A stretch of DNA of 64,000 nt from Phoronis australis (Eukaryota; Animalia; Phoronida), in NCBI GenBank assembly GCA_002633005.1, contig NMRA01000459.1, forward strand, positions 233,047 through 297,046, read 5' to 3'. Shown here piece by piece: positions 1,335 through 57,705 of the stretch. Within the stretch, counting starts at the first letter, position 1. Each line of letters begins with the position of its first letter. The translations under genes and the position numbers were made by a program. The notes under the pieces were generated by a model that saw nothing but the letters and a program-made list of their open reading frames with translations, made no database searches and was not told where the DNA came from.

Positions 1335-2854
1335 ACCTGTATGGCATTTCATATCCAGACTGTGGGTGTGTCGTTAAGCAATACAGTCATGTACCTGCTG
1401 TGTCCATCAAAAATGCTACCCCATTTTTTTGTTTTGTAGACTTGAGGACAATGTAACATGCATTGACATTAAAGGATCATGTTGTATCTGAGGTACGAGT
1501 GTCTGCAATATGTAGTCTCACCTCACCAGATCTTCCAATAACTACTCTTCAGTTTGGCTCGATGAACTTCAAAAAATGCCCAAGTCTGAACTAAGCTTTG
1601 CTGTATGGTTTAATTCATCTACTTGATCATTCAGATAATTAAATTTCACCTTACTGGCTAGATAAAATCTCCCGTACCTGTTGGATCTGACTGATGCAAG
1701 TTTATGTGCGTTTAGTACAACAATGTGTGTCATCTCTGTACAAAGCAAGACTTCAAGTATCGGTGTGGAGACTGGTCACATGGGACTGGATAATAGTGAC
1801 CTCTAGAGGTTGGGGAAGCAATTTTATTTTTTGATCAAAACACATCATGTCCAATCACATATTAAATTGTGAAAGGATTTTTTCTCAAAGTCAGACATGT
1901 TCCTCGGCCACCCGCTGTGCAGAAGTACCTTCTGGTGCAGTCAGGTGGTGTCAGAGCTGCTAGTCCCATGTTGTTAGTCCAGATTGTTTCCTGAAAGTTT
2001 GAGAAAAGTGTTACTTGTCTTTGTGCCATTGTTGTTGGAATAACACCCATGTCAAATTAGAGGATCCCACTACAGGCTGAAGAATGGTGTTCTTGGCAGA
2101 ATTATGGATGGTAGTTTATCTCTCAGGGGAGGTACTAATTGTGCAATAAAGATAGTAAGTGAACGACCCAATTTGGGTGAAATCAGTACAGTTCCAAGCT
2201 TGCGGGCTCATTCCAGGTGGTGTACTTCACACTTCTGGTGCTTGACCAGTGTCATTTAACAAAGGGAACTTGTCAACAATATGTTAATGGCATAGATTTT
2301 CTAAGGGAACACATGGCTTGGCCAAAATATGTGCAACTTTTATTACATTAGACCTATGTCTCGAGTAAGATTTGTTTGAAGTCTGTCTCATCAGTATTTG
2401 GCTGACAAATTCAGTGGAATATTCAATGTACGCTCAAAGAAAATTTTCCCCAGTATAAGCCCAGGGCAAAAAACTTTGCATGGTTGAACTTCCCAAATGT
2501 ATATTTGGGGTTGATTTTTGTTCTGCATAAAATGTTGTCTTTGGAATATATGATTGGGGTTTTCTACAGATAAGTGGTAACAAACTGAAGTAGAAGTCTC
2601 CTTGTTTGGAGGTTCATTGAAACCACTTTGACTGCAAACGACAAAATGAATATCAACTTGTCAACCTGGTTGAATTATTTTGAGCAGCATGGCTGTTTTG
2701 GCAGCTGTATTAAATTCTGTGTAAATTTATTTGAAAAACTTACTGGCAGCCATTAAAAAATAAGATTGATATACTGTATGTACAACAAAGACTTAATGAA
2801 GTTTAGATAGAAACTCAATATCTTAATTACACATGTTGGAACACGAAATAATAT

Positions 2855-4083
2855 AAGAGTAACGCGGAACGTTGAAATGCTCCCACGAATGCATTGCAAA
2901 TGGTGTGCTTTTAGGGTTGTGTATTTGTATCATTAAAATGGCCACTAGATGGCGCACAATATGTCGAATCTGTCTGAAAACCAAAAATGCCATCCTTTCT
3001 TTAAAAGAAAGCCATTTACCAACTTAAATTAAAATTCTTCGAGGAACTTCAGAGAAACAGAGGAAAACAAAAAAATGAAATTGCCACTAGGGACAGTGTT
3101 CATCGGATACATCTAAAAGTCGTCATCTTCTCTTGTTAACTTCATATATATACACATGCTAAATTTAATAAAGATCCTGCTGAGGGCTTAGGAGACACAA
3201 CTATGGAAGCAAAACAAAACCGCCACTAGGAGGTGCCACAGTAGTCGAAGTCATCAGAAAATCATCAGCAACCATCCCCTTCAAAGAAAGAACATACATG
3301 CCAACTTTCACAATCGTCCTTAAAGTGGTTTGGTTGACAGAGGGACAAATGCCACAAAACACTCAAAAAACAGCAAAAAAAGCCACTAGGTAGCGCAAAA
3401 AACTTGAATCAATCCGAAGATGAATGGCTAGGGTCACCTCACTAATGGATGCCAATGTGCCAAAGTTTGTGGAAATCCGTTGAGTACCTTTGAAGATACA
3501 GTGATAAACGTAAAAAACTGAAATTGCCATTAGGGGGCACACCGTTAGACCCATCTGTCCGAAAGTCGTCGTCTATTGTCACATTCACTAAATTTAATAA
3601 AGTTGCTGAAGAGCATTCAGGAGATACAGCCATGGGCGCAAAAACAAACAAAACTGCTACTAGGAGGCGCCACAGTAGTCAAAGAAATCGGAAAATCATC
3701 GTCAACTGTCTTCTTCAAAGTAAGAATATCCATGCAAATTTCCACAATCGTCCTTAGAGTGGTTTGGTTGTTAGAAGCAATCCGAAAACGAGAGGATAGC
3801 GTCAACTCATGTATAGATGCCTATGTACCAAATTTCATGAAAATCAGTTGAAGACCTTTGAAGATACAGAGGCAAACGTAAAAAACTAAAATTGTCACTA
3901 GGTGGCACAGGGGTATCTGGGTTGGTCCGAAACTCATCGTCCTCTGTCGTAGACGGCATCGGAACACACCTGCCAAATTTCATACAATCCTGCAAGGGGT
4001 TTAGGAGATACAGCCGCAGACGCCCAGACAGACATGACGGCAGTATGCGACCACATACAAATAATATGTGGGAGCATAAAAAT
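2855..4083 (-). mobile_element. Helentron-associated non-autonomous element (HINE/DINE-1-like), copy A
   Basis: Subterminal ATGCTCCCAC near 2878 and GTGGGAGCATAAAAAT near 4068; internal degenerate repeats built on GCCACTAGG; homologous to copies at 27.8 kb and 43 kb. Confidence 0.75.
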
Positions 4084-5019
4084 GAAGGTAGGTTATTGTA
4101 AGGGACCCCCCCCCTCCCCGAGCCAACTTCAGTCATTTGGTTGGATAACAGAAACTTCAAAATAAAACTCTAGAAATGGTTTATTACAAAAATAGAAACG
4201 ATATAAAATGACACTGTAAAAATGAAAATTTTAAAACCAACCTGACCATGATTATAATCCAGGCAACTTTTTGACTTAACAGTACACACATGTATTAATG
4301 GTTAATATGGAAACATCAGGTGTGTGAATGAGACCGATATACATGTCAACTGCTACTATTTTTTGCTAAACAATCTTCATTGTTCGTCACTTTATGTTAC
4401 TGAAGCGATCGGCGATTATAAAATACTTAAAAAACTAAGAAGGAAAGCTTTACCTAAGTAAATTTTAAAAAAAGCATTGTGTCCGGGTGTGACAATACAA
4501 CCCAATGAAAATAATACCGCACCGCAGTAAGAACAGATTACAGGAATTCCTACACTTAAGCTACATTAAATTTAACTGTCTTAACTACATAATACCCACT
4601 ACCCAGTTGCTACACGAGCTAACAATGATATTGCTTCACATATAATATTGCATTAAAACACTAGAATAGCAGGTCAAGACTAGATTTCTAGAAGCAAGAC
4701 GAACAAGTTTCTTGCAAACATGTTGAAAAAACATTAAAAAGTACCTGTGGAATGCTAACATAACCACACAGCTACTTCGAATAATAAAAAAACAAAAAGG
4801 CTGACTAGAATTTATACAATGACCAAAGCTACCTACAAAGAGGAAGTTTACAAAACCAGTATGGCACCAGTTGATACACCTGACAGAAGAACAATAATTT
4901 GTTTGACTTCCAACAAAATTAATAGAAAAAAAGATATAAAATTAAAATGGACCCTTGTAAAACAAACACAGCGGTTTCTTTGCTAATACTGTCACTTCAA
5001 GTTCAGCGATTATCTCCCA

Positions 5020-5190
5020 TTACTCCCTGTCAACAGCCGACATGTCACCATTACTCTTGTTGTCCCTCTTTGTTGTCAGCAGACATGTCAGCATTACTCC
5101 AGTAATCTTTCCTTGTTTACAGCCGACACATCAGCGTTACTCTAGCTATCCCTCTTAGTTGTCAGCTGACATGTCAGCATCTCCATTATC
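5020..5190 (-). repeat. Degenerate repeat, about 43-bp unit x4, spanning the SRA gene stop codon
   Basis: Minus-strand unit about AGTAATGCTGACATGTCTGCTGACAACAAAGAGGGACAACAAG. Confidence 0.7.
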
Positions 5191-8100
5191 AGATTCTTCA
5201 CTCGCCACACATTCGTTTCCCTCCTCAAGCTGTTCAGTAACCATCTCTTCTTGGTCACCAGAGGGAGTCTGTTCATTGCCTGGTGACAGGGGAGGCGACT
5301 CCCCCAATTCAGATGGTGGCTTGGACAGTGCATCTATTTCTGACCCAAGCTCTGAAGATGGTGTGTCACTGCTGTGTTCCCCTTCACTGCCGAGACCAGA
5401 ATCTTGACTACTGCATGTGTCGTCCATTTCTTCCTATATTTAAAGGAAAGTTACGGTCTTCTAAATAAACACATTAATGATGTCTAAGTGTGTAGTCAAC
5501 GCATACAGTCAGTAACAAATTTTTGAGTCATTACGTTACTGGCATTTACTAGTAATTGAATCAATACTTTCTGAGGAAGCCAAAGTACTAGGTACATACC
5601 AGGTTTCAAATGGCTAATTAAAAATGCCAAGATGGTACATATTTAATGGGAAATATCACATTCCCAAAATATACATAAAGTTTTGCATGATCGTTTCTTT
5701 TTGTTGAATTTAACTCATCTTTTATGGGCCAGTAACTTAATATTGTTTTCCCACTATTACTGAAAAAGTAATAAATAGACCTACAGAACAACTGGAAGTG
5801 CCAAACAGATTATACAAATGATATAATGAGCATGAAGTTTATTAGTAATTTTAGAAACCTTTTTAATGTTGTGAGATACAGTTTCCGGTTTTAAACTCTG
5901 AGGAGTGAATTGAGAACATTGATTGCACATATGACAAGAATCACACACTTGAAGTATCCTTCTCAGGTATTGGTTATTTGAGCTTATGGCTCTTAGTACC
6001 GTGGGGACATCTGTTGCAAAAGTCAACAATTATATTTTTTGTTCTTATGGAACATAATTAATAACATTCTGGAACATGAATCATGCGATACCAAACCTTT
6101 TATGAAGGAAAATGATAAGAACTCGATTAGCTTACCTTGGGTTTGCACTCCCAGGGTGGAGGCGCCTGATTCGTCAGTCGCTTCATGGCAAACTTCCAAA
6201 CACCAAACCCTTCAACGCCAGTGGTAAACCAAGCCTTCTCCACAGAATACAAACCTAAATGATGTCATAAAAACGGTCAAAATCTTAACAAAAATAGCAA
6301 GTAAAAACCTCAAGGGTTTGCCACACCATCTGTCCAAAAATCTACGTCAGTCGTGGTTTTCTCATCAGGAACACGTCTGCCAACCAAATTGTCATAATAA
6401 TCCTTTCAGCGGTTTGGTATTTAAAAAGGCTGATGACAAAAACAATCTAAAACATAATAAAAAGGGTGCAAAATACACCAAATCGGTCTGAAACTGGAAA
6501 GGTATGGTCTGATGGTCACCTTCTTAATAGAAACCTATTTGCCAAATAACGTGAAAATCCATTAACTCTGAAGATACAGAGGCAAACACAAAAATAGCCT
6601 GACGCTATTAGGCACAGTGGTAGTCTGACTGACCTGAAACTTGTATTAACCTACATGAGCTCTATAGGCACACACCTGCCAAATTTCACAAAGCTCCTCC
6701 AAAGGATGAAGGAGATGGCCGCAAATGCAAAAAAACAAAATTGCCTTCTAGGGGATGCCCGTCAAAAATCATTGCCAGCTGTTGTCTTCTCATCAGGAAC
6801 ATGTCTACCAATTTTCATAAAGATTGATTGAGCGGTTCAGCAGATAGAATGGAAAACGCCAGAAAACGAACTCGAAAAGAACAAAAATGGACACCAATGG
6901 AGGCAAGATGAGTCGAATCTGTTCAAAACTGGAATTGTACTGTCGCCTCCTTAATACAAACCTATTTGCCAAGAACATCCATCAAGGAACTCCAAAGTTA
7001 AAAAGGCAAATGTAGAAAGGTGAAATTGCCACCAGGGGGCACAGCCAAAGCTGGATCGGTCAGAAACTGGAAGCCATTTTTCCACAACTTCATAGGAACA
7101 CAACTGCCAAATCTCATTAAGATGCTTCAAGGGGTTAATGAGACACAGCAGCATACGCCGGAAAGATATGATAACACTCACCAACATAAGCACCCCTAAA
7201 AATGGCAGACGACGGAACAGATTTCACTTACACATTCTATTAGCAATATCGTTGAAACAGAAGCTGCTTTTGCTAAATTTCAAAAAATTATAGAATGAGG
7301 AAATCCTTAAACTTTTTAAAAGTGCGCAAGACTGAAAATTTCGTATCTAAAATTTCAGACCACCAAATCCCTAAAATATCCAAGTTTCCTATTCATAAAA
7401 TCTTTCTTCCCGTCTTACCATCATATCTGTAGCCACTCTCGGGAGCAAAGGGGCTCCTTAGTTTGTACCCTCGTATGACCCGCACTGGATTACCCGTCTC
7501 AACGTTCCTGCTCAGAGCAAGGTTGCCCCTTGTGAGGGTCTGGTCTTTCGACTGGGGGGCAGTACGTAGATTCTGAAATATTTGTTCAATAAACTGTAAA
7601 ATTTCAGTTAGCGCTAAGGGCTAGGAGAACAATCAAACGTCGACGAACGATGGACACTTTTGGACACCAAATTTTAAATTTGACTTGAAGCTGGGGATGC
7701 GCTCTTTCCAAGACTTGGGCTTTAACCTGGGTTAATTTGCTATTAAGGCATAAGTACAACTGAGAAGATGAAGTTTAACTGAGGGAGAATGGCCAGGCTG
7801 GATTTCATAGTTTTATTTACTCGTTCAGGAACCGACTGTGAGGCATGAAAAAACAGACTCAACTTCTCAATAGCTACAGCAACATCAGTAGTTCTTGAAA
7901 AGTTGAGGAAAGCTTTAATATCATTTTCCCTTTGGTTCTTTGCAAAAGGTGAAAAAATAACGTAATGTAAAAAACAATGACTAGAAAATTACCCAACCAT
8001 TGAATTTTTGAAATAACAGAAATTTTTGAAAACTACTGATCCTGTATTTTGACAGTCACCTTTGGCTTGTTTGGAGTTCCTTTAAGATCACGCCCACCCT

Positions 8101-11100
8101 CCCCAGTGTAGGTGAAGTATTCGCCCATGTCTACATCATCCGCATAGCCACCTGACAAGGCGATAGAGTATGCCCCTTCGTGGCCACCATGAATACCCGA
8201 CACCGGCGGCCTGCAACACATAAGAATGAAGACGCATGAAGCCCAGAGTTATACTAAATCAGTACCTTGGGCTTGTTGGGTGTTCCTTTCAGATCTCGAC
8301 CACCTTCCCCAGTATAGGTAAAGTAGTCGCCCATATCGACGTCATCTGCGTACCCGCCAGAGAGGGCAATAGAGTATGCACCGTCATGACCTCCATGTAT
8401 GCCTGCAACAGTCGGCCTGCAATACCCCCCAAAGACTGTTTAGATTACAATAAACAACTTGGAACGAGTAAATATTGCAGCGTCAAGTGACTGAAATTTA
8501 AACTAATTGGGTGGTTATGGCAGAGTTGATTAAGAGATCAGTCCTACACTTGCAACCTTATGAATTAAAAACCCATTCCTTCATTCTCTTGGAGGGAATG
8601 GAGTTTAATCTCAGTTCTCGATAAGATCACCACCTCCACACTGACTGCTCTCGGCTATAACAATTGAGAAATGTTAGTTCTGGAAATGTGAGAAAAAATT
8701 TAGAAACAGACAAAATTATTGTCATAGCAAACTCCAATTTATCTTGGTTACCAGAGCAAAACAATGGGTTTAGTGTATTATACTGCAGTTCAATTTGTAG
8801 AGTGACCAACAGACAGTATGCAAGAAACGGAGTGTCATCTTCGACCTTTTCAAAGTACTTATTTCTACACTAAAAAACTTTCAGCTATCTGACTGGCAAT
8901 TGCAGGAGACACACATATGTTGCAATTGTACAGCATTAGGCAAATACAGATCTAGGATATTAAAATCCCTGAATGCAATAGAGTTGTAACCAAATGAAAA
9001 GGTGAGCTTTGCTTTTTAATAGTTCATTACCCACAGAGACTTCTAGCCACGTTTTGAGTTTCATTCATATAAATCTAGCGGCCAATAGCGGGCACCAGTC
9101 ATAGGCAGCTACAATGAAGAAATTTTCTAAAAACTCTGGAGTACTTCAACCATCCAAGTTTTAGTTTCAAAGTGGAGGACTAATTAAAAAGCAAATTTGC
9201 TGAGAAGTTAGTCTGTTCTAACGCCTTTTGCTCATTCTTCAAACACTTCAGCCGTTCAAAACAAATGTAGCACTTAAAATATTCACATTACAAACAATTT
9301 TTACCTGTGAACGCCTGCTGCGCAGGCTTCCATTCTCATCAGCCAATATGTGCCCACGTCAACGCCATCTACTGGGCCATAGAAATTTTCTCGAAATTTG
9401 GGAACACGAATTCTTGGTGAGTCATCATGTGCTAGGTCATACTCTACTTGTTCTTGTATGTCACTGACATCAAGTGCAGCCTAAAAAGATAAAGTTATTA
9501 TTATGTAACGCTCGCCACTTCCAATCAGCTACAGCAACGTTATGGTAGTTATTAAAAAAGTTGAAAATTTTTTCAGAATTTGCCTCGATTGCCTGAACTA
9601 CGAAACATGAATGCGAAGACAGGAACCATTAGAAAATTCAGCGACCTCTTTGAGTATTCAAATTTTAAACAATTGTAAAACAAATTTAGGTCAATATGTC
9701 ATATGTCAGTCACAAAAATTGTACTAAAATCTGAGAAAATTTTCGAAAACTCAGTGCAAAGTTGCAAAAATCATGTTAAAAGACCCGAGTGTATAGTAAA
9801 CTGTAACCATCAGAATTCCCACAAAATATATTTCAAGAGCATATGTAAATTTTTATCAAACCTTTCCCTGCAGCCGGGAAGACCTCCTTGCTGGTCCTGA
9901 TCGGATTGACCCGTAATTCTCATCTTTTATCTGTTGTTTTGCTTTCTTTTCAGGCTGCCACTCCTTAGCATCACTCTTTCTTTTGAAGACAGCAGGTTTC
10001 TTGATTACTTTGAAAGGGAGTAGGAAGTCTTTCTGCAATAATATGAAAAAGTAGGAATCGTGAATTTACATTGTGTTGTGAACTGTAATGCAACCGCCAC
10101 ATCACCTGCCTTAGCCTTAGAACAGTTAAGGCGGCAAATCTCAATCTTGTCAACATGGTCAGGGCAGATTAGTTGCAATCAAGTTGACGATCATGGATCA
10201 TGACAGGGTCACTCACCTCAACGTCCCTGACACTGTTCTCCACAGCGCCTCCATTGCAGTGCAAATGCCAAAAGCTCATGGGACTTCTTGTCCTATGATA
10301 GTGGATGCCTCTGACACTGGTGAATATGAACACCAGTTTGTTACCCAACATGATGTATAGTGTTAATGAAATGCATGATAAACATTTTGGTGTACTGGTA
10401 ACACTAACTTAAATCTTAATTGGGGTCCCACGTTTTGAGAAACAATTTCAGTTACCCACAACAGAATAAACAATTATCCATTAAACCAGGGTTTGTATGT
10501 AATGCCTTGCAATCATGCAGTATTGTGATAATTAAACAACTTGTTTACTTTAGAAAAGTTCTGAGTTCAAACTTGTTCTTAAACACTCCGCAGCTCATCG
10601 TGAGCCAGGCTTATCTCACAGGCGCTTGGGTTTATCGCAAATGACGTCACTCAATAATATATATAAGAAAACATGAAGGTTGGACACTCGAAATCTGTTT
10701 GCTGAAAATTTTCCACTCAAATGTGCATGGAACTCTATGAAACTAGCATCGAACAACTATTAGAATGCCTTCTTTCATTCGATCTCTTCAAATTGCCTTC
10801 GAGTGGCGATTTGGCGACAAAAATGCCAAAAGAATGCCAAAATCACAAATTCAAGGACCTGATTCCGTGATATCATGGCAGACGGTCTTCGCACATCCGG
10901 GTTTTTGACGGACGCTCCCCGAGCTAAATCCGAAGGTCTAATTTCGCGCGGCTTTCATCGTCAATCCCTCGACTACTTGATCATGAAAACTGAGCAGAGA
11001 GCACTTTATTGCCAAATAAATGTAATTACTCACATATTTGTGTCAAATATAAATTATCCTGATACTGTATTGATATGCGAAGTTTTTGTGTACTGTGATT

Positions 11101-12352
11101 TCATATGAAGGTTTTACTTTTGGCCAAAACCATTGAGTTAACTCGTCGGCCACGCGCATTGTAATACTTGCACGGACAGCGTTTCCTGGACGAGTGTGTT
11201 GTGCTTCAATCAAAAAAGTGCGTTATGTCAAGATGAGAACCAAGATACACCAGTTTATGTAATAAATTTCTAAGTTAAGGGCGAAAATGAGCCGTCAGTG
11301 GAATAAAGTTACAAATAATCATTAAAATACTAACTTTAACATTCTCAATTAGTTGAGTTTCGGATTAGAATTATTGAATTTGAAATATTGGTTGCTTGCT
11401 CAAACTCGAAGTTTCATCTACGTCAGGCGTACAAGTTGAAGCACAACTGAAATCCGCCATGTTTACTATTTCAGGTCCTTGAATTCAGAGTTTTGAGATT
11501 GTTTTGGAAATTCCATCGCCACTTCACCACTCACGAAGACAGTTAATGGGATCTAGGAAAGATAAGGCTTTGTTTATGCAATACCAGGCTAAGGGAGGTG
11601 CACGCAGATTTTATTTGGATTTTGGACGGTTGAAGTTGGGAGCCTCGGCTAAACAGATTTCGAGTGTCCAACCTTTATGTTTTCTTATATATATATATAT
11701 TGTGACGTCATTTGCGATAAACCCATGCGCCTGTGGCTTATCTCAACAAAGTCTAAGCTCCATTCCTGCGACGAAACAAATCCTGCTGTGGAGATTTGAA
11801 TGATATGCATGGCACTGGTGGTTCTGAAAATTTGGGACCCCTGTCACTGTCACGGGTCCATTTAGGCACAGAAGATGCGATTATAATTTGAAGGTCCAAA
11901 ATGAACTGGGCGCATTAAGTTAGTGTAAAACTTTCAATGTAAGGATATAGTGAACCACGACTGTCAAGTTTATTGTCGGTGTCGAGTTGATTGTGCGGTG
12001 ACCACCCTGCCTGCCTGTAGGCAATGACCATCGCCTCTGTTGGCCCGAGGTGGTTGGTGCGAGGCATAATTCGCCGAAAAGCTTCCTGCGTACAGAGCGC
12101 CTATAGCCTCTACATCGCCTCTGGTTCGGGCCAACAGAGGCGATGGTCATTGCCTAGCCTGCCTGATAACCACGAGGCACGACCACGCCAACAGCTGACT
12201 GACTTAGCCCAGCCCTAACCCGGACACACAACCCGACTCACTGGGATTGTACGTTCAAAACTTACTGTCAATCCTATCTGCGACAGTATTTTCCTATTGT
12301 CTTCTAGATTTTTCAGCCTTCGTTTCTCATATTCTGATAATCCTGCAGGCAT
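5155..12352 (-). CDS. Standalone SRA/YDG-domain protein, about 378 aa: N-terminal helix, basic linker, SRA domain, acidic tail
   Basis: Hand-spliced GT-AG exons with consistent phases: 12352-12266, 10032-9862, 9480-9305, [8416-8266 or 8210-8060], 7572-7419, 6254-6136, 5433-5155 (TAA). SRA motifs: [16 protein letters not shown]...[65 protein letters not shown]. No UBL, Tudor, PHD, RING or SET region, so no UHRF1 symbol is given. Confidence 0.9.
6270..7203 (-). mobile_element. Degenerate HINE-family copy in SRA gene intron 5
   Basis: Shares blocks such as gaagatacagaggcaaac, cacacctgccaaatttca and aaattgccaccagggggcac with copy A; boundaries approximate. Confidence 0.6.
8060..8210 (-). CDS. 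SRA gene exon 4b (one of two mutually exclusive duplicate exons)
   Basis: 151 nt, ttgcag acceptor, gtgact donor, phase 2 to 0. Encodes (R)[50 protein letters not shown]. Confidence 0.88.
8266..8416 (-). CDS. SRA gene exon 4a (one of two mutually exclusive duplicate exons)
   Basis: 151 nt, ttgcag acceptor, gtactg donor, phase 2 to 0. Encodes (R)[50 protein letters not shown]. Confidence 0.88.
10617..11735. mobile_element. Non-autonomous DNA transposon with about 84-bp terminal inverted repeats and 8-bp TSD (P- or hAT-type), SRA gene intron 1
   Basis: Termini CACAGGCGC(T/A)TGGGTTTATCGCAAATGACGTCAC...GGTTGGACACTCGAAATCTGTTT are inverted at both ends. GCTTATCT is duplicated at 10609-10616 and 11736-11743. 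Confidence 0.88.
12018..12156. mobile_element. 139-bp MITE with perfect 31-bp inverted termini and 9-bp TSD
   Basis: TAGGCAATGACCATCGCCTCTGTTGGCCCGA and its reverse complement; GCCTGCCTG at 12009-12017 and 12157-12165. Confidence 0.85.
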
Positions 12353-12753: not shown

Positions 12754-15700
12754 ATGCCTTTTGGTGTGAGGCCAGTTTGTGCGACATGTAAAACCACCAC
12801 TTCAACAATGTGGCGAAAGGGAGCCAGGTGCGAAGTGTTGTGCAATTCCTGTGGATTGAAACAGCTTGGCGGGAACGTTCGACCGATATCCCCGGCCATG
12901 TCAACAGACGGGACAAGTTCAAATTCAAGTGGAAAATCGGAGAATAAAAGTAATAGCAAAGCAACGGATAGTTCATCAATTGACAAAACAGTAGCCTTAC
13001 GAAAAAGTGCTAGAATCAAGCCATCGAGAAGCAAATCTCAGACAAATACAAAGACTTTGTCAACAAAAGGAAAAAGCAGAAGGATTATATTCAAGAAAAA
13101 TGTATGTTTGAACAGAGGCGTCCTCAACTTCTGACCGTCCCAACATATTATATAGAATACTACAAGGTATGACATTCCGGACTAGAAATTCCACCGGTGC
13201 TTCACTTCAGCTGTCCATAGCAAACACAAAACTCTGTTGTATTACTGCAGGTTCACTAGCTAGGCCTCTAGAAGTACTCACCAGTTAAAACACAGCTATT
13301 CCAGCTCCAATAAAACCCAATCCAGGTACCCATCCCTGACATATAAATTTACTCAAAATAGGGGTTCAACAAACCACAAGGAGTTGTTCTTTCTCCCAAT
13401 ACCAATTACAGTGTCCTTGTCCTCTGAGTTAATTACAAATTCGCAGTCAAAGCACAAAAATCTTCCCAAAAAGTCGCTGGGTACTATCGGTATGCTTCAT
13501 GTGAGTTGGGTCAAGGTCATGTAGGGTACGTAATAATCCGATGAGTTATGAATGTACGTCAATTGCCAGTACATCACAGAAGATTTACGAAATGGTCTGA
13601 CTTAATGTGGAGGGTGATTTTTGTGCTTTGACCGCGAATTTATTGCGAACTCAATGGAGCAGGACACCATAAATGGTTTTGGGAGAAAGAACAATTCCTC
13701 ATGGTTTGTTGAACCCCTGTTTTGTGTAAATTTATTGAGTTTGGTGTTTGCTATGGACTGCTGAAATGAAGCACCCGTGGAATTTCTAGTGTCATACCTT
13801 GTACTATACATATAGTGTATTGGGGATGATCAGAAGCTTAAAACACCCGTGTGTTTGAAAAGAAAAGTGTAAGAAGATGACTTTGGCCAGTGTTGATTTG
13901 AAATCTTTGGTCACTAACTTCAATTTTTGATATTTGTTGTGAGTGCTGACATTTTAGTATCTGGCTGTGCCGACATTGCCATGGTGACAACTATTACTAA
14001 GTCTCCCGGCTACGGTGGAAGCTTTTCAGTGAATTATGCCTCACACTGATTAAACCATCAAAGCCGCGTTGCTATGAGCACCCTTTGTGCATAGAGGGAC
14101 ACCTTAGGAGGCCATTGATGTCTTTGATTCCTTCCAACTGAAGAAATTATTTTGTAATCAATCTTTTTTCAAGCAGTCCTACATTCAGTTGCCGATTTGG
14201 GCTATTTTTACATTGCTCGTGCCATGAGATATGATGTCCTTCTATGGACATAGCAATGTGACTTCGATGGTTTGAATAGTGTGAGGCAGAATTCGTGGAA
14301 AAGCTATCAACTTAATAATGAAGGGCCTACTGCTAGTGGAGCTGGTGGCACTGTCATGCTCAAGAGATTCAGAAGTGTCTATTTTATGTACATATATTTG
14401 ACAATGTCCATATACATACACTCGCTTGTGTAGCCTTTGTGCAAGGGGACATGAGAAATACCTAGCTTTGAATGATTCTGATAAAAGTGAGCAAAGCAAA
14501 TTCTTACACAAAGTACTAAATTCGGTTATCAGCGTGAAAATAATACCTTTAGTCTGTTATTCTGCAGTTTGCGGAACCATCATATATATCAACCTTGAGC
14601 ACCAGTGAAATTAGGTACTTTCTTTTCGCCAGTCTCTGTTTTTGCCAATTGTGTTTGCTTTTTAGAAGGTGGCGTAGCAATTGCCGAGATTACCCAACCT
14701 GGGATTGGAAGCAGCAACCACCAATTAAACCAGCGAGCACGTTAAAGGGTCACGTGATTCGCTGGAAGCACGTCTACAACAATTACACACAGTTTACGAC
14801 AAACTGTCAGAAGTGGTTTTACTTAAGTTTGTAGTTTGAATTAATTTATTTGTTACCACTGAGCCAAAGTTCTTTTACAAAGTTGTTACCATCGTCCACA
14901 ATTACCATACGAAACCATTATTAAATCGACGTTTGACTTTTCTTTGTATTACACTGGAGGGAGAGAGACAAGGTGTGAATGTCTCAGTTGCAAAAAGGCA
15001 TGGTTGGATGTGTTAGATATGTTGGACTTCTTGCCAGTAATGGTTTAGTGCCAAAGATTGAGGTGCGGGGTGCCTGACTTTCTTCTGCATCAGTACAATC
15101 AGGTTTCAAAAAAAATGACACCTTTTGACAGGAAATTGTTTTGCAGGCTGTAATAAAAAGTAAACCTCACTTTTCAGTCACATCATTTTAAGCTACCGAT
15201 TAGTATTCCTGATATTTTAAGTATTCATTCATGTTTTCTCTGTCATTTTAGCCAATCAAGTCACTGACATCTGTTGCGACTGTTACCACATCAGATTATG
15301 TGTACTATCAGGTGAGTTCAGTGTTCTGTTTTGACTCATTACTGTGTCGAGTTTAAATGTCATCGTGACTATTTTTGGCTTACTTGCATCAAGTTTGAGG
15401 TATTGGGAATGAATGGTTTATTAAACAAATTTTGGTAATATTCTAAAACTTAACACACAATCTCCCCACAGCATGGACATGGGGTATCTGACATGTACAT
15501 GAAATTTGTTATTCGATTTGAGTTTATATTTTGTGTTGTGAAGAACCCTGAAATTATGTGCACATTTTCTATTGTTTCTTGGTCAATTTTGAATTAACCA
15601 ATGTCCATGATTAGGCAAAAATGCCAGTATGGGAAATATTTGAGTAAAGCCGAGGTGCACAGAACAGTGAATCATTTGAAATTTAAACAAAAATATTTTT

Positions 15701-18700
15701 GCTGCAAACTTCTGATTTTGACAATAAGAAAATTTTTGATAACTACAATTTTGCAAATCGACCAATTGCTGCAAACTAAATTAATTGGATGCATTTTTTC
15801 TTTGTGCACGTGTTAATTAGTTATTTACTTTTAGGGTATCTACTACCAAGTTGGAGACATTGTATCCTTGCTTGATGACAACGGCCTGCTTTACTACGCG
15901 CAGATACGTGGCTTCCTTCAAGATCAGTTCACAGAGAAGAGTGCAGTGATCACTTGGCTGCTACCGACCAATCAAACAAAGAACGTTCATGAGTTTGATC
16001 CTTCCACATTCATTCTGGGTAAGTGCAGAGCTCCGCAATCAATGGCACAACTGTTTGTAAACTGGTTCAGCTTTCCAGAACAATTTCTGCCACAGGAATC
16101 TAATTGCACAAGATATTGGTTTCTGTAAAGCAAGTGCGTCGTATTGTTCATACATCACTGTACAATATCTCGTGCACTGATGAGTGATATCATGCATTAG
16201 CTGTTCCAATATATTACATCCCAACCAGTGTTCACCCAAGGCTCCGTTTTTTTTTTTGGCACCTTGCGATGCTACCAAACTAACAACACCCATTTGACAC
16301 TTTGAATGCTGCTTTTAGATCATAAGTTCTAGTTCTAAGAATTCAAAGAAAAAAGTGGTGGCAATAACCCAGTTTTGCTGAAAACCTGGATTGCTACAAA
16401 GATCTTATCTAGTAGTTAGAGGTTTACTGAATGCTGCTTCAGTAATATCACTGTTATCTTGGGACATCCCATTGTAACAGATAAAGTCTCCACTGAACAT
16501 CAAAAATGTGTATTTCACATCATCAGGCATACGTTTCAGTTTAGTTACACATGATAACGATCAATTTCATGTAGACAAAGGAAGGAAACACCCTTCTCCT
16601 AAGCCTGTCTCTAGCGAAGTGCCAAACACATACTATCACGCCCGCATGTCCACGTAACAAAGGCGCACTGAGACGCAACAAAAACATTAACATAAGAATG
16701 AATGAACAACAACTAAATAAGCATAACAATAAATGTTCCGTTGCTAATGTCCTGTCACACCATTTTGATGGCTAGTATCAAATGTTTCGATTTGATTTTG
16801 TGGCAGATGGCAAATTAAAATTCTGTGAAAAGGTCAACCTCGAGACAAAAAATTAAAATTGTGGCTACACTAATATTTCTGGTCTCATCTGAGAGCCCAT
16901 TCTCTCTAGTTTCAGGACACATATTTGACTGTCCTATATTTGGCTAAATGGACCCATTTTTGGAGGTCACTTCACCCTAAAAAATTAGCTTGATTTTCAT
17001 GTGTGTTACTAATTATTGTCATAAAAAGCTAATAATGGGGTTTTCACTATACTATCAAATTTGTGCAATCACATGAACCCCAAACTTTATAAAAAATAAC
17101 ATTTCAACTTTGGCACATCACTGACCTCTTGGGGTCAAAGGTCAACTCCTGGATATCATGGTGCCGTACGTCCAGCACAAAAAAGTTTTTAAAATTTTAG
17201 TTACGTTAAAAATTTTTAATCAAAATTAAAATAATTTCAGATTCTCTTGTAACTTGTTACTCAATACTATTGACCAAGATTTTGGATCCCAGTTATTATT
17301 CGTTTTGTCAGAAATTGTGTGACAAACATGTAACAAATTTGTACGTCCGTCACATACGGCCGTCACACCCATGAAATTGCAATTTTTCCGCCAATAAAAA
17401 TAGCCTTAGGTCATATTTTTACTTTCTAAACTTGCATGTTGATAAAATGTACCTCACACGCAAAAACTTTAAAACGATAAAATATTACAAAGGCAGCTTT
17501 AAAATTAAGTGAAGAAGTTGTTACAAGTTTTAAGTAAATGCATTGATTTTTTCAATTTCAAATGTATTTGCAGAAAAGTTAAAGTTTACAATGTCATCTA
17601 GTTATTCTTAGTAGAATACAACTTATGAAAATCAAACCGTTGGACCACATAATAAAATGTAAATAAAACAAAGTGTTAATTAAATTGGTGCCCCTTATTA
17701 GTAAAGAAAGGCTTAGCTTTTGGGAAATTCAAGATGCAAAAATATTCATACAAAAGAAATCCTAAGGTGTTCTAGAGTATACGAAAATAACAAGAAACTT
17801 AAAAGAATACATGTCAAGTTGCTACTGCACATGAATCAACATGTTATTTCTGCTCCGACCTGCTATGCTGTGTTTTGTGTTGAAAAAGCCGATATCGGGA
17901 ATTTTCCAGTGGTAAGAATGTCACCTACTTTATTGAAAATTTTTGTCACATCCTCACTGGCTGTAGGCACACTTTTTGAGTTTTTCAATGTATTGGGTCA
18001 TTGGGTGGCTTGTATGAAATTATTTCATAGCAAATGATTATATTGTCTCATCTTACATGTTTTTGATCCTTCAATCTTTTTGAGGAATTAGTCGACTAAT
18101 TTTTTTTCTGCTGAGTTCCGAGGAGATTAAACCACATTTAGAAAGGATAGAGGAAATTGTTGAAGACCATGTGGAGAACAGACGCAACCGGGAGAAGACT
18201 AAATATCTTCTGGAATATTCTCTGAAACTCAAAAAATGCCCTCGTGTATCAAGAAATTCATAATTACTGTACTTGCGCGTACTGTGATGTGGCATTATAT
18301 AAAGCATATCTTTGAATTTGAAAAGAAGGCATGAGTTAAGGAGCTGGATGAAAACCTAATCATTTTAATCACTAAATAGAAACCAGCATCTGATAAGTTA
18401 GCTCTACATATTCCTAAATCATAATCCTAAATGCAATTAATTTAAAATGTGGTGTTTTCATACTGGAAGACAGCACGGGTGATTTGAATCAAAACATGAA
18501 TGCCAAAAGTCGATGATGTCTTCTAAACCATATGCTTCACACTTTGTTTTAATAAGACACTGAAGTCCTGTTACTAATACTTTAAAAACATCACAGTTAT
18601 TACTTACATGGGCATGCATCACAACCATCGACAGCATGGACCAGAGAAAAATTTTATACAACTGCTAAGGGCGAGTTCTAATTTAAAAAAAAACAATTAA

Positions 18701-20644
18701 TTAAAATACATTTTTATGACAGTGATTAGTAATGTTTTAAACTTAATTTCACTTTTTATATTTGACGGTCATATTTACTGATTAGTTTTAAATTAGTGTT
18801 CTATTTAACGCTTAAAAACAGATTTTCCTGATAACTAACAGCTGTCAAATACAAAATGATTATCACTCTCATTCCCATCAATAATGCTTACCCTCTTCAA
18901 AAGGAAGTGAAGATTTTAGGTGATTGTTTTATATCTTTAATCAAATGTATTGAAAAGTTAAAATCCTAGAGTGTATATTCCTAGTATAGCCTTACCTCTG
19001 ATGATTTCGTGCAAAGGGTCAATCGGTGCATTTTATTTAAAAAACATTGAATTAGTGTCAAAAGACCAAAATAGCTTAAATGCTGCAAAAGTTTGAATCA
19101 TTCTGAATTGATATCTTAGTCAAAACAAACAATTTAGTACTAGGATATCAGAGCGTACGTCCATCACGCATGTCCGTCACACTAACTCAACTTATATCGA
19201 GCTTTTTGACAAAAATTTCTTAGCAGATATCATCAAAAAAATTAGTGTGTAGTACTTTGCAAACATTCCTTTAAATCATCATGTAAAACATAAAATTGTA
19301 AATTAATGCAACTCACAGAAAATTAACGTTAAATTTTTTTAAAAAAATTCAAATTCTCACCTCTTTAAAGACAATTTTCTCAGTCATATTAAAAGATAGG
19401 GGAAAAGTTGATACATGCTTTGAAAGCTATCAATGAGACCTATCCATTGATATGTTAATTATTTTCCTTGGGTGAACATTTTTTCACAATTGATGTTCTC
19501 TGATTGTACGTCCGTCACAAATGGAATTGCCCTTCTCGTTTTCTATTTTACTATTGTGCTTTGAATTTGGCCATTTTTACCTCAGTAGCTTTAAAGATAA
19601 AACTTTGTTTCATATACTGTGAGCCCATGTTTATATTTCAAAAAGCATAAAACATACAACGCTTTCCTATCATTAGTTCAAACATGCATACAGATTTTGA
19701 ATGTTCATACTGTTTGGCTGATTGCTTCATTTTAAGAATTAACATACTACTCCACCGATTGTGATCATTTGTCATTTTTCAACACTATTCTGTATGTTCA
19801 GCAACGCTTTGTCTCTGAAAATCTTCTAAGGACAATGTTGCTGGAATTAGAAATCATGTTTCCTCAAGATCAGTTAAAAGGATTCCAAACCTGGTTTTGG
19901 CCAATTAACAGATACTACAATCAATTTTCCCATCCAGTTCCCTCAAACAAAATAATGCTTTGTAACCCTTGACAACCCTCGACAACTCTCAAAAGTTTGG
20001 AGGAAAATTAATAGCTTCTTTCAAAGTTTGCTAAACGGGCAAGCGTGACCTACGCATTTGGCGAATTACACGGCAACTGTGGGAAAAGACCACACACCAA
20101 GGACCATAATGTCCAATCTGTGGTGCAGGGAGCATGAGCTTTTGGCTGATGCTTATCTTTAACTCGGAAGATTGACACCAATTATACATTAGCAGGTGAC
20201 AGAATGAGGATTGGTGGAAATCATCAAAACAGGGTTTAGTATCCTCTTAACACCCGCTATCAGGACTGCAGCAGGCTAACATTTACTTTTATGCTTGCAG
20301 ATGGTGTTGCTTTTTAGCTCAGCGCCTTCAGTATGACTGGCTGCCGACTCAATGTGACCAGTTGGCTGAACACTAGTCACCTGTACTATAATAACATTAA
20401 TTTATATTTTTATTCATTTACAGGACCTGAAGAAGACCTGCCACGGAAGATGGAGTATTTAGACTTTGTTTGTCACGCACCATCGGACTATTACAAACTG
20501 CACAACTCGCCCTATCCCACAATGCCCACGAAACAGGAACTGGGTTATATATGGACAAGCTTAGGAGGCGAGATTCGTGCATTGCCGACAACTGATGAAA
20601 TTTTTGGTTCACGATCTGATAACGTGGCTGATGGGACAGTCTGA
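12754..20644 (+). CDS. GATAD1: GATA zinc finger domain-containing protein 1, about 270 aa
   Basis: Exons 12754-13101, 15252-15311, 15835-16018, 20424-20644, all GT-AG and in phase. N-terminal CxxC..WRKG..LCNxC finger, then KGKSRRIIFK, YYAQIRGFLQDQFTEKSAVITWL and GPEEDLPRKMEYLDFVCHAPSDY, all GATAD1 hallmarks. Confidence 0.96.
13161..13803. mobile_element. Foldback/MITE-like element with long imperfect inverted arms, GATAD1 intron 1
   Basis: Left arm tacaaggtatgac...ctagaaattccac...gtccatagcaaacac...ggggttcaacaaacca...gtcaaagcacaaaaatc is mirrored at about 13617-13803; the left arm carries an extra segment of roughly 100 nt. No clear TSD. Confidence 0.75.
17160..19532. mobile_element. Probable DNA-transposon relic (Sola-like right terminus), GATAD1 intron 3
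   Basis: GTACGTCCRTCAC-type motif recurs at about 17166, 17341, 19155 and 19506; ends TGGAATTGCCC at 19532. Left end not located. Confidence 0.4.
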
Positions 20645-28200: not shown

Positions 28201-31200
28201 ATGTAGTCAACCGCTCTCTTCACACTGAGAACATACACGCCAATTTTCAAAATCATTCCTAGACTGGTTTGGTTGATTGAGGGGTGGACGCCAAAAGCAA
28301 ACTAAAATACAGAAAAAAGGCCACTAGGTGACACAAAGTACCTCCATTCCATCCAAAAATGGGGGAATAGCATCATCTCACCAATGGATGCCTATATTCC
28401 AAATTTTCTGAATATCTGTTGAGGACCTTTGAAGATACAGAGGTAAACCTAAAAACTGAAATTGCCACTAGGGGGCACATCGGTAGTCAGATGCGTCTGA
28501 AAGTCATCGTCATGTATTGTCAACATCACATAAATACACTTGCTAAATTTAGTAAAGATCCTGCCAACTGTTTAGGAGATACAGCCATGGGCGCAAAAAA
28601 ACTGTCACTAGGAGGCGCCACAGTAGACGAAATCGTTGCACAATCACCATCAGCCGTTCTCTTCAAAGTAAAAACATACATTCCAATTTTCACAATCATC
28701 CTTAGAGCAGTTTGGTTGATAGAGGGGTGGACGCTAAAAACAGACTCGAAAACGGCAAAAATGGCCACTAGGTGACGCAAATTTTGTCCAAACCAACCGA
28801 AAACGAAAGGATAGCGTCCTCTCACTAATACATGCCTATATGGCAAATTTTATGAAAATACGTTGAGGACCTTTGAATATATAAAGCATAAACAAATAAA
28901 ATTGCCACAAGGGAGCCACCAGTAGTCGGATCCGTCCAAAATTTCGCTCATGCCGTCCCATCCATGAAGGAACATAATGTGCCACATTTCATGAACATAT
29001 GTAAAAGAGTTTTGGAGATAGAGCATAATGTGTCCAACATATAAATATGTGGGCGCATAAAAATCAAAATTCTACAAGCTTTCTAAAATATAAAGCATTC
29101 TGGATATAAGATGCTTCATAACCTTAACAAACATAATAAGACTCAGACGATCACACCAAAGCATTGTAAGTCACACAACTACCTTTCTTAAAAGCCATAG
29201 TGCCCAGCTCAATCTGTCGGTGTGTTTTAATCACATCAAATGGAACAGTTAAAATGCCAGCAATCTGCAAAGAAATACAAGGCAGTGACATAAACATGCA
29301 ACAATTTCTTTGCTAAGCTGCTGTTTGCTCTAAATATGCGACAGAAATTTTAACACAGTTTGATTCGCCACTGACAGTGAGATTTTACAAAGTATTTTGT
29401 TTTGAATGCTTGCTGCCTATTCTCTGCTGGACATGTAATATGTTACAGGCATCGCCTATTTAGTTTTGACAGCAGATGGAGAAAGGTTTTAAAAACACAG
29501 ATGACAACCTGGTCAATTGTTTAGAATTCTGAGCAGCAGTGTCACACACAGTGATACACAATCCAATTATCTGCCAGGCTTTGAAATTGAAGTCATAACA
29601 GATGTGATAATTGCTCTGCTTCACATTCAAAGAACTTAATAAACTAGAATTCATGATAACGTCTAGTAGGTTGATGCTGATGGTTATTTCACATAATTAT
29701 GTACTGAAAAAGTACAAGATACTGTAGAAGGGGGGCGTTTTTTTAAAGATCAGATATGTGTAGCTTGTTGTAAACATGTAAGTGAAAGAGCGCCCCTTTC
29801 AGGAAACAATCCAAGACTTACTGTTCCAGATATGGAGCCGGCTAAGAACGTCTGGTAGAAGGTGGGCTTGGTCTGCTCCGACCAGCGCAGCTGGTAAGCC
29901 TTGAGCCACTCGTAGTTAAGCCAATAGATGGCTGAGAATGGAACGTCTCGTAGTAGAGTGGGACCCAGTCCACGCCAGAGAGACAGTATACCATCGCTGC
30001 TTATAGCCGCCCGAACTGCCACACAGATCTCCTTGTAGCTGTGCCGGTTAGACTGCAACTTGGTTCGGATCAGCTCTAAAGGGCTAATCACCGTCACCGC
30101 ACCAACTGAAAGTAGAAACAGATGCTTTAAGTTTCAAAGTTGTGCGTTAGTGTTTGAACGTGCCCACAATGTACATGAACTTACAGTAATAATAATGTTG
30201 AGAAAATTCAGTCTGTATTTGCAGAACAAGGAGAATTTGAACCCAAAAGAAAATTTATACTTCACAATTTTTTCACATAACAAAATTAATTGCAAAAATA
30301 AAACAAAGAACAACCACTGGCGCCACCTGTCATGAGTACACTGTGTCTGACAACCTGTGAGCTATTAACGGCACTCCGTAGACCAACTTATTGTGTGATA
30401 TTGACAAACTTCCATGGAAATCAAAATGATCCAAGCTCTATCCACAAGCACATCTCTTCTCAAATAACTAACAACCTATTACCTCCACCCTTATTTGATT
30501 GATTGACTTACTGCGTGCTATAGACCCTGCTGCCATCACAATGTACAGGGTGTCCCGTCTTTCCTCGCGGTACCCCATAGCATACTTTATCTTGTCGTAG
30601 GCAGTAAAGTAAATCATAGTGGCAGGCACTGCCATGATTCTAAAATGGAAGAAACATGTGATGAGTTGAAACTCGTCAACAACCATTTGATACGTCTCCA
30701 TTTTGGTCAATATGAATTCATATTAGATCAATGACCATCACTCTAATATCAGTCTGATCACCATTCATGGACCACCTATTTTAATCATTCGTCATCGTTC
30801 AGTAAGAAATCATATTTATTATCATAATGTGATGATAAGCCTTGAATGAAAACTTATATCAATCATTAATAGGAACTGTCATACCATACCATTCACAGGA
30901 ATCAATAGAAATGGTTGAAATAAATTCCTCCGAAGATCTTTCATGACAAATTAAAGTTAAGACTAAATTTCTTGCATAACAACCATAATCTTTGTAGGAA
31001 GACACACTGGCCAATCACAGGCAATATGATCATAGGTCAATCCCAGGGACTAAGACCATAAATACAATGGCCAATCACAGGAAACATGACAATAAAATAA
31101 ATGTTTCTGAAGGACCCAGTCATGCATAGTCTGTCAGTCCCTAAGAAACAAACTAGATTTTCCACAATGTAACCAACAAAGTACCAATGTCCTAAGATTT

Positions 31201-56938: not shown

Positions 56939-57705
56939 CAGTGGCGGATCTAGGATATCACAAGGGGGGGCCCAACATTTTGTCCGGCTGTAAGCATTTA
57001 CGCAAACTGAACCACGATTGTAGATGCGCATAGCACCGAATGGAGGGAGGTCGGGAGGGGGGTTTGCCCAGGAAATTTTTCTGTTTTTACCTCTAAAAAT
57101 CAAGCATTTTCCTTGATTCCTGAAGTATTATTCAAGAAAAAAAAAAAAAAAAAAAAAAACACAGAGAACGNNNNNNNNNNNNNNNNNNNNNNNNNNNNNN
57201 NNNNNNNNNNNNNNNNNNNNNNNNNNNNNNNNNNNNNNNNNNNNNNNNNNNNNNNNNNNNNNNNNNNNNNNNNNNNNNNNNNNNNNNNNNNNNNNNNNNN
57301 NNNNNNNNNNNNNNNNNNNNNNNNNNNNNNNNNNNNNNNNNNNNNNNNNNNNNNNNNNNNNNNNNNNNNNNNNNNNNNNNNNNNNNNNNNNNNNNNNNNN
57401 NNNNNNNNNNNNNNNNNNNNNNNNNNNNNNNNNNNNNNNNNNNNNNNNNNNNNNNNNNNNNNNNNNNNNNNNNNNNNNNNNNNNNNNNNNNNNNNNNNNN
57501 NNNNNNNNNNNNNNNNNNNNNNNNNNNNNNNNNNNNNNNNNNNNNNNNNNNNNNNNNNNNNNNNNNNNNNNNNNNNNNNNNNNNNNNNNNNNNNNNNNNN
57601 NNNNNNNNNNNNNNNNNNNNNCTACGCTCTTACTGTTTTATTTTTTTTGCGGCAGCTAAGGGGGGGGCCCGGGCCCCCTGGGCCCCCCCCCTAAATCCGC
57701 CTATG
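56939..57705. mobile_element. GC-ended MITE spanning the assembly gap, 5-bp TSD
   Basis: CAGTGGCGGATCTAGG at left and CCTAAATCCGCCTATG at right; CCCCA on both flanks. Confidence 0.65.
57171..57621. other. Assembly gap (451 N)
   Basis: Run of N. Confidence 1.

Follow-up and report, generated by a model that had tools for sequence, protein, structure and literature searches.

The question raised by this locus is whether a protein whose sole recognized domain is an SRA domain may bring the remodeller HELLS to hemimethylated DNA. The gene lies at 5155–12352, on the minus strand, of a 64,000-nucleotide stretch of Phoronis australis DNA (contig NMRA01000459.1, positions 233,047 to 297,046; hereafter the window, to which all coordinates refer), and a preliminary description made from the letters alone had read it as a standalone SRA protein with an N-terminal helix of the CDCA7/WDR76 type. 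Two published puzzles frame the question: species that keep HELLS and lose CDCA7 suggest CDCA7-independent functions of HELLS (Funabiki et al., PMC10538959), and a 2026 review treats the role of a stripped-down UHRF1 homologue and the existence of analogous adaptors as unresolved (PMC13297926). We find that the window gene is an expressed member of an under-described animal-fungal SRA family, separate from UHRF1, CDCA7 and WDR76. It is spliced with one or the other of two mutually exclusive exons encoding the thumb loop, and its base-binding pocket, N-terminal helix and linker motif are conserved in the family. As the best explanation of these features, we propose that the two 378-aa isoforms form a nucleosome-anchored adaptor for hemimethylated CpG, of CDCA7-like build, that recruits HELLS; we give this proposal about even odds.

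The gene comprises seven coding exons joined by GT-AG introns, with a product of 378 residues. Exon 1 (12266–12352, aa 1–29) carries the start codon and the conserved N-terminal helix, exon 2 (9862–10032, aa 30–86) encodes a basic linker with 17 K/R against 6 D/E, and exon 3 (9305–9480, aa 87–145) spans the transition from the linker to the SRA domain. The pocket exon, 4a (8266–8416), is followed by exon 5 (7419–7572), which continues the SRA domain, by exon 6 (6136–6254), which ends it and includes a hairpin (A269) predicted to dock the N-terminal helix, and by the coding part of exon 7 (5155–5433), which encodes a 92-aa acidic tail with 27 D/E and the stop codon. Splice joints were counted in three stranded RNA runs from one study with the same species label, of which ~18–19% of each was read, with a listing threshold of 3 reads; the reads come from individuals other than the assembly's and contain single-nucleotide polymorphisms (SNPs). 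Exon 1 is joined to exon 2 by 51 reads (26/22/3 per run) and exon 2 to exon 3 by 34 (12/16/6), which confirms the proposed connection of the helix with the SRA exons. Exons 5 and 6 are linked by 32 reads (10/16/6) and exons 6 and 7 by 37 (13/18/6), and all joint reads have the strand expected of a minus-strand transcript.

Among the joints listed from the three runs, none connects exon 1 to anything upstream. Since in-frame stops lie immediately 5' of the ATG and a GATA-finger gene begins ~400 bp off on the opposite strand, no UHRF1-type domains are hidden upstream. Pfam analysis of the exons returned SAD_SRA (PF02182) alone, across exons 3–6 (profile positions 2–148; E 3.6e-12 for exon 4a), with no match for exons 1 and 7 and one sub-threshold match for exon 2. 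The complete transcript and the Pfam result thus bear out the description of a standalone SRA protein without UBL, Tudor, PHD or RING domains. The 378-aa product itself, with exon 1 as read, the linker ending in its arginine-rich motif and the 92-aa acidic tail, was likewise recovered from the exons. The protein of the preliminary description is thus real; a second copy of the pocket exon had been overlooked.

This exon, which encodes the thumb, the 5-methylcytosine (5mC) pocket and the first half of the finger loop, is present in two 151-nt copies, 4a and 4b (8060–8210), set 55 nt apart. Both copies are joined to exon 3 (4a by 18 reads, 8/10/0 per run; 4b by 16, 2/9/5) and to exon 5 (4a by 20 reads, 9/7/4; 4b by 11, 4/7/0), and neither a 4a–4b nor an e3–e5 joint was listed at 3 or more reads in the three runs. 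Inclusion of both copies would shift the frame and yield a 219-aa product. With the same flanks and a frame-breaking double inclusion, 4a and 4b are mutually exclusive exons, both of which are used. The 55-nt intron between them (8211–8265) is likely too short for splicing, and, judged from this length, steric block is the likely cause of the exclusion. The copies differ at 33 of 151 nt, with 26 synonymous and 4 non-synonymous codons out of 50 (proportions of synonymous and non-synonymous differences, pS 0.77 and pN 0.044), and, as judged from the sequence comparison, both are under purifying selection. Alleles or a collapsed assembly were considered as the source of the two copies and ruled out by the 22% divergence and by the same unique flanks in runs X1 and X2.

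The residue changes from 4a to 4b are T147P, A149S, D156E and D175E, of which the third is reverted by a SNP in the RNA-sequenced animals. The first two flank the thumb valine, V148, so that the thumb reads T147-V148-A149 in one isoform and P147-V148-S149 in the other. In UHRF1, the thumb valine occupies the gap left by the flipped base. The thumb loop is also named in the description of an octopus YDG protein (PMC9476566). A second species, identified in ENA contigs of the cluster of P0002, likewise has two tandem copies of the pocket exon, with a Thr thumb in the first and a Pro thumb in the second. These copies share 35 of 38 residues with each other and 29–32 with the window's copies, which suggests independent duplication or homogenization. 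Among the tallied database members of the family, 78 have a TVA thumb and 8 a PVS thumb; no tandem pocket exon was found in 80 metagenome loci. The introns flanking both alternative exons contain a perfect 13-nt inverted repeat (7814–7826 and 8462–8474), which may be due to chance, as it is one of two such pairs in 2.1 kb.

When exon 4a was aligned to UHRF1 structures, the pocket residues Y167, D170 and Y179 corresponded to UHRF1 Y466, D469 and Y478. The finger is six residues longer than in UHRF1, and N196 and R198, encoded by exon 5 and equivalent to N489 and R491, are kept after the insertion. Together with the equivalent of G465, all six positions are retained. Across 223 pattern-matched family sequences, they are conserved at 94–100%, with Phe counted at the Y478 site (G465 in 221, Y466 in 223, D469 in 217, Y478 in 199 plus 24 with Phe, N489 in 213 and R491 in 210). 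An AlphaFold model of the Lineus ortholog P0006 had a mean predicted local distance difference test (pLDDT) value of 68.7 and a predicted template modelling score of 0.56, with a confident SRA domain, a disordered tail and a helix spanning residues 7–25 at a pLDDT of ~90. This model matched the SRA structures of UHRF1 and UHRF2 with a Foldseek E of 9e-20 and a VIA Z of 24.9 (root-mean-square deviation 1.4, 149 aligned). Because the pocket and finger residues are kept and the fold matches that of the UHRF SRA domain, the window protein is likely to bind hemimethylated CpG.

The family was collected by searching 1.84 billion representatives with exon 4a, which gave 907 matches at E ≤0.001. Among the best 150 of these 907, the finger is six residues longer than that of UHRF1 in 90 and of UHRF type in 7. 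Named members include Lineus, Mytilus, Batillaria, Ptychodera, Macrostomum, Daphnia, Amphibalanus, Nymphon, Frankliniella, Macrosteles and Xenia, as well as chytrids and many basidiomycetes; no relatives were found in viral contigs. The closest relatives of the window protein are Lineus P0006 (58% over 325) and Mytilus P0005 (62% over 285). In an alignment of 46 chosen members, mostly with a full N-terminus, SAD_SRA was found in 46/46 and Pfam returned no UHRF1-type extra domain, three other Pfam families matching one member each. SRA trees place the window protein among invertebrate members and the UHRF rows on a long branch of their own, with a support of 100/99 for the branch that parts 3 UHRF rows from 18 family rows. 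Outgroups are few: an animal-plus-fungal clade reached a support of 63 with the second outgroup, and a 38-row midpoint-rooted tree nests the UHRF rows inside the family. Word-indexed searches, which are insensitive, gave 18 candidates for exon 3, none significant, and only itself for the helix region of P0015. Fusions to DUF7923 in the fungal models P0038, P0063, P0066 and P0145, three of them with CCCH fingers, were set aside as likely a conserved neighbouring gene merged by prediction.

The order of helix, arginine motif and long-finger SRA domain, with no other domain, fits the window protein to the family of the Cryptococcus neoformans Uhrf1-like protein, which was reached by a search with the Kwoniella member. 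Cluster P0192 holds P0283, which is UHRF1_CRYN9 of strain H99, and P0185 is XP_024511987, the C. neoformans UHRF1 accession in Funabiki et al. (PMC10538959). P0283 is 40% identical to the window protein over 320 columns, from the helix to the end of the SRA domain; it shares the T-V-A-G-I thumb of isoform A and the six-residue-longer finger, and its helix scores 33.5 bits. From the UniRef name and the published statement that the species has one such protein, we infer that P0283 is CNAG_00677. This protein (Uhrf1, or Uhf1) selectively binds hemimethylated DNA and has a role in methylation that runs parallel to that of Clr4; without it, 5mC declines mainly if Clr4 is missing too (Catania et al., 10.1101/149385). 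Since the family includes this published binder of hemimethylated CpG, the methyl-DNA reader itself is not new, contrary to the supposition of the preliminary description. The same source calls the fungal protein a UHRF1 ortholog and, in its accessible portions, mentions neither the helix nor HELLS. A literature search with little coverage of subscription journals found no account in which the exon pair, the helix or a link to HELLS is described for members of this family, and no such paralog is mentioned in the available text of two annelid surveys (PMC8330077, PMC11292947). The novelty lies in the helix of CDCA7 type, the putative acidic-patch motif, the predicted docking of the helix on its own SRA domain and the thumb exon with its two mutually exclusive copies.

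The N-terminal helix was profiled from 30 N-terminal pieces (profile A2) with a cut-off of 15 bits. This value was reached by 27 of 44 held-out members with at least 100 residues upstream of the pocket and by none of 880 shuffles. Of 112 further fungal matches, 109 also reached it, so the expected conservation in orthologs was found. Aligned by eye without gaps, window residues Y8, R12, N15, L16, N19, L23 and I26 correspond to human CDCA7 F114, R118, N121, I122, N125, L129 and L132, and the Arabidopsis CDCA7 helix additionally matches S6, E9 and G27. The pattern given in the preliminary description thus agrees in register with the published Helix-1 sequences of CDCA7, which we took from the text alignments in Shinkai et al. 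(PMC11417364). CDCA7 scores were obtained as hand sums on a matrix of family sequences alone, in place of a profile-profile search, for four of the seven printed helices, those of mouse, chicken and zebrafish being left out. Without gaps, human CDCA7 scored 16.5 bits, the Xenopus protein 16.4 and two Arabidopsis proteins 20.7 and 21.6, compared with 55 for the window and a median of 49 for the held-out members. All four exceed every control, the maxima of which were 6.2 bits for 89,302 natural windows, 13.3 for 216,000 shuffled helices, 9.6 for 174 reversed helices and 10.4 for 274,271 six-frame windows, with natural controls drawn from the proteins and loci gathered in this analysis. A search of the PDB with the helix profile gave no meaningful chain, only 6 chance matches (E 0.3–3.5). 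Helices of this kind, accompanied by an arginine motif, occur elsewhere among nuclear proteins, for instance in some B3-domain proteins of plants, which limits the specificity of the match. In CDCA7, the helix is required for HELLS binding (PMC11343034; PMC11417364) and has been proposed to displace the autoinhibitory CC2 contact of HELLS (PMC12885070); the plant helix has been modelled on CC2 of DDM1 (PMC12718391). On this sequence evidence, recruitment of HELLS through the helix has about even odds.

The linker ends in the motif RRSSRL (aa 78–83; 9871–9888, minus strand), which is a putative nucleosome acidic-patch anchor of the HMGN/Dsup type, a reading missed in the preliminary description. 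The Dsup segment that contacts the acidic patch has the same six letters at its core (PMC12487698). Upstream of the SRA domain, 170 of 192 members of the family have a motif R[RK]SxR, compared with 497 of 19,200 shuffles. The distance from the invariant Asn of the helix to R-R-S-x-R is 59 aa in the window, 64 aa as the family median and 44–61 aa in Arabidopsis CDCA7, where the motif also follows the helix, as the preliminary description had stated for proteins of this type.

Co-occurrence with HELLS was assessed from the table rows of Funabiki et al. (PMC10538959). All six genera common to these rows and to our family list, a small sample, have HELLS: C. neoformans, K. mangroviensis, C. cinerea, M. 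lignano, D. pulex and F. occidentalis. CDCA7 is missing in the first and the last three of these. The family member comes from the same species in four genera and from congeners in Daphnia and Frankliniella.

Possible contacts between the helix and the SRA domain were explored by two-chain folding of P0006, in which helix residues 1–34 and SRA residues 100–290 were submitted as separate chains and the alignment was unused. The predicted docking scored 0.78, against 0.21 for the best of 3 controls; runs agreed in at least 93% of contacts, with a partner pLDDT of at least 77. In the predicted complex, helix residues 7–29 pack on SRA residues 169–179 and 253–272 through the conserved face of the helix (Y8, R12, N15, I16, N19, I22, L23 and L26), on strands beside the pocket. 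In microbes, the mark used for this score was reached by 51 of the 78 solved complexes, as against 2 of 108 mismatched pairs. In eukaryotes, the corresponding figures were 39 of 65 for solved pairs without a like complex (71 of 105 for all solved pairs; 12 of 29 for those whose interface is small) and 2 of 126 for unrelated pairs. Peptides and disordered chains lie outside this calibration, and the helix and the SRA domain belong to a single protein. Beneath L23, the SRA domain has Ala in 143 of 166 members matched where UHRF1 has Leu, and the segment that follows the SRA domain in UHRF1 is absent from the family. Covariation between helix and SRA domain was computed from 163 sequences (effective number ~31). 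The 25 predicted contacts lay slightly above other pairs (p 0.005) and the best of them ranked 70 of 4104; in this shallow alignment, known hairpin contacts were also poorly ranked. The docking is a prediction rather than proof of binding; it speaks for a structural lid or, alternatively, for a resting state in which the protein is closed.

In the mechanism that we propose, the RRSSRL motif would probably lie on the H2A–H2B acidic patch, as in Dsup and HMGN. The SRA domain would, with greater confidence by analogy with the fungal member, engage a hemimethylated CpG in linker DNA, which it likely reads by base flipping. The helix, which would rest on the SRA domain beforehand, might then be handed to CC2 of HELLS, relieving autoinhibition so that nucleosomes are slid off methylation sites, a step we regard as evenly balanced. 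The choice between exons 4a and 4b may tune the thumb and hence the DNA preference, which is a more tentative step. By extension, animals and fungi may possess a second, ancient HELLS adaptor that combines a CDCA7-type chassis of helix and acidic-patch anchor with an SRA reader. It would be closed at rest, with the helix on the SRA domain, and opened by hemimethylated linker DNA to switch HELLS on, with the thumb swapped by splicing in the present gene. This would explain the presence of HELLS and methylation without CDCA7 in Cryptococcus, Daphnia and Macrostomum; we hold this general form to be possible, at somewhat less than an even chance.

Several observations weigh against the recruitment of HELLS. 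The CDCA7 helices score far below the median of the family members, human CDCA7 lacks the family's E9 and G27, and the CDCA7 match rests on hand sums. An SRA domain flips its base and is blocked inside the nucleosome core, so that, unlike CDCA7, it is unable to read CpG there. The conserved face of the helix is predicted to dock on the ortholog's own SRA domain and, with one such face, SRA and HELLS could not be bound simultaneously. Co-occurrence is weak evidence because HELLS is widespread and two of the six genera enter through a congener. Loss of the fungal member alone barely changed 5mC (10.1101/149385). The family is present in the smut fungi Sporisorium and Pseudozyma; the related Ustilago maydis has HELLS but lacks a methyltransferase, and no UHRF1 is listed for it (PMC10538959; PMC13297926). 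Human WDR76 has been reported to associate with HELLS weakly, and the accessible text of that source does not give HELLS as a partner of the N-terminal half of WDR76 (10.1101/650028).

The strongest competitor takes the helix for an integral lid on the SRA domain, either in cis or swapped within a homodimer, that does not bind HELLS. The protein would then bind hemimethylated CpG and nucleosomes and aid the maintenance methyltransferase in another way. The docking score of 0.78 against 0.21, the Ala under L23 where UHRF1 has Leu and the loss of the post-SRA segment of UHRF1 all agree with a lid. However, the same residues are conserved in the CDCA7 helices, where there is no SRA domain to dock on, and several residues of the SRA face are also conserved in UHRF1, which has no such helix. 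The docking tool is uncalibrated on peptides and disordered chains and made no use of the alignment, and the covariation is too shallow to decide. We consider a lid without HELLS binding unlikely. It is less probable still that helix and arginine motif act together as a general chassis for chromatin targeting, and that the family works with HELLS or other remodellers in genome maintenance, at bases that are damaged or otherwise modified and apart from 5mC maintenance, as WDR76 and MUS-30 do in Neurospora. There, MUS-30, the LSH of this fungus, binds WDR76; MUS-30 is needed for survival of DNA damage and not for methylation (PMC4714748). The occurrence of the family in smut fungi fits this explanation, as do the titles of PDB entries in which SRA folds bind DNA with 5-hydroxymethylcytosine. 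In addition, among structural look-alikes of aa 1–95, the nearest outside the family is the CMR1 cluster (row 3, template modelling score 0.33), which is under the Atlas bar; Atlas feature searches with the N-terminus gave no usable match. Against this explanation stand the selectivity of the fungal member for hemimethylated CpG and its contribution to 5mC in the absence of Clr4 (10.1101/149385), as well as the intact 5mC pocket and finger residues of the window protein.

That the locus is a truncated or mis-modelled UHRF1 fragment, or an assembly duplicate without a function of its own, is very improbable. Databases often label members “UHRF1” or “UHRF1-like”, but RNA contains a complete spliced transcript, all 46 aligned members have SAD_SRA and none has another UHRF1 domain, the 100/99 branch separates the family from the UHRF rows and both exon copies are under purifying selection.

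Downstream of the stop codon, the 3' untranslated region spans 4343–5154 on the minus strand, with an approximate far end, as strand-specific RNA depth reaches the 4343–4769 bin. A 43-nt tandem repeat of 3.4 copies (5034–5180) covers the last codons, the stop and the start of this region. The tail contains a DSGxxS motif (aa 297–302; 5386–5403, minus strand), a possible beta-TrCP phosphodegron that may point to regulated degradation. It is exact in 3 of 12 animal orthologs checked and degenerate in a fourth, absent from all 111 fungal tails, and arises by chance in 623 of 20,000 shuffles of the window tail. Dispersed repeats at 2635–4342, 6478–7331 and 10321–12250 have heavy RNA coverage from other loci, those of intron 1 being read on both strands. 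On the plus strand, an exon of the SMUG1 uracil/5-hydroxymethyluracil DNA glycosylase (852–1334; E 4e-47 to solved SMUG1) lies tail-to-tail with the SRA gene, ~3–4 kb off. The Tulasnella model P0232 fuses a family SRA protein to a UDG-superfamily domain, which is probably a coincidence or a merger of neighbours. The GATA-finger gene (Pfam GATA; 12754–13104, plus strand), which we take to be GATAD1-like, has more exons near 15835–16128 and 20318–20644, and its position ~400 bp from the SRA ATG on the opposite strand suggests a shared promoter. Ordinary neighbours are mitochondrial carrier exons (Mito_carr; 29750–30133, minus strand) and tetraspanin exons (35913–37663, plus strand). An assembly gap at ~57170–57620 lies far from the SRA gene, with 452 N in the window.

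If the helix binds HELLS, the family would offer one testable answer to both puzzles, in which an SRA domain guides the way to the remodeller and a ubiquitin ligase is not required. The fungal “Uhrf1” would then be kin of an overlooked animal paralog and not of UHRF1, and surveys of the methylation toolkit that report a single uhrf gene in most animals (PMC8330077) would miss a second SRA reader. The exon pair constitutes a natural two-residue experiment on the specificity of the SRA thumb.

Among known systems, UHRF1 and UHRF2 share the SRA fold, the 5mC pocket and the N and R of the finger with the window protein. They differ in having a short NKR finger and a thumb His where the window has Thr or Pro, and in their separate branch of the tree. 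Since the window protein lacks UBL, tandem Tudor, PHD and RING domains, it has no histone ubiquitylation route to DNMT1. Homologs with an SRA and no RING domain have been marked by Funabiki et al. (PMC10538959), and YDG-OCTBM of octopus is a short YDG protein found beside UHRF1 in a mollusc (PMC9476566). Judged from its description, this SRA-like protein probably belongs to the same family; its authors consider it devoid of the CpG-recognition residues, whereas N and R are retained beyond the longer loop in the window protein.

CDCA7 of the CDCA7–HELLS complex (CHIRRC) resembles the window protein in its in-register helix, in the R-R-S-x-R-L motif at similar spacing, clearest in Arabidopsis, and in its C-terminal DNA-reading domain, which is a zf-4CXXC_R1 (HMZF) domain instead of an SRA domain; of the two, HELLS binding has been shown for CDCA7 only, and CDCA7 reads CpG within the nucleosome core. 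Compared with HMGN and Dsup, the arginine motif of the window protein sits in a linker between a helix and a folded reader domain, and its binding to the acidic patch is putative. WDR76/Cmr1 associates with HELLS/LSH in human cells and Neurospora, shows a weak, sub-threshold structural likeness at the N-terminus and, like HELLS, is a predicted acidic-patch binder (10.1101/2024.06.26.600687), but has a WD40 domain where the window protein has SRA. The closest counterpart is the C. neoformans Uhrf1-like protein, which is SRA-only, has the N-terminal helix, the arginine motif region, the thumb of isoform A and the long finger, and falls on the window's side of the tree, opposite the UHRF rows; the window gene differs from it in its animal origin, its pair of mutually exclusive thumb exons and the long acidic tail of its product.

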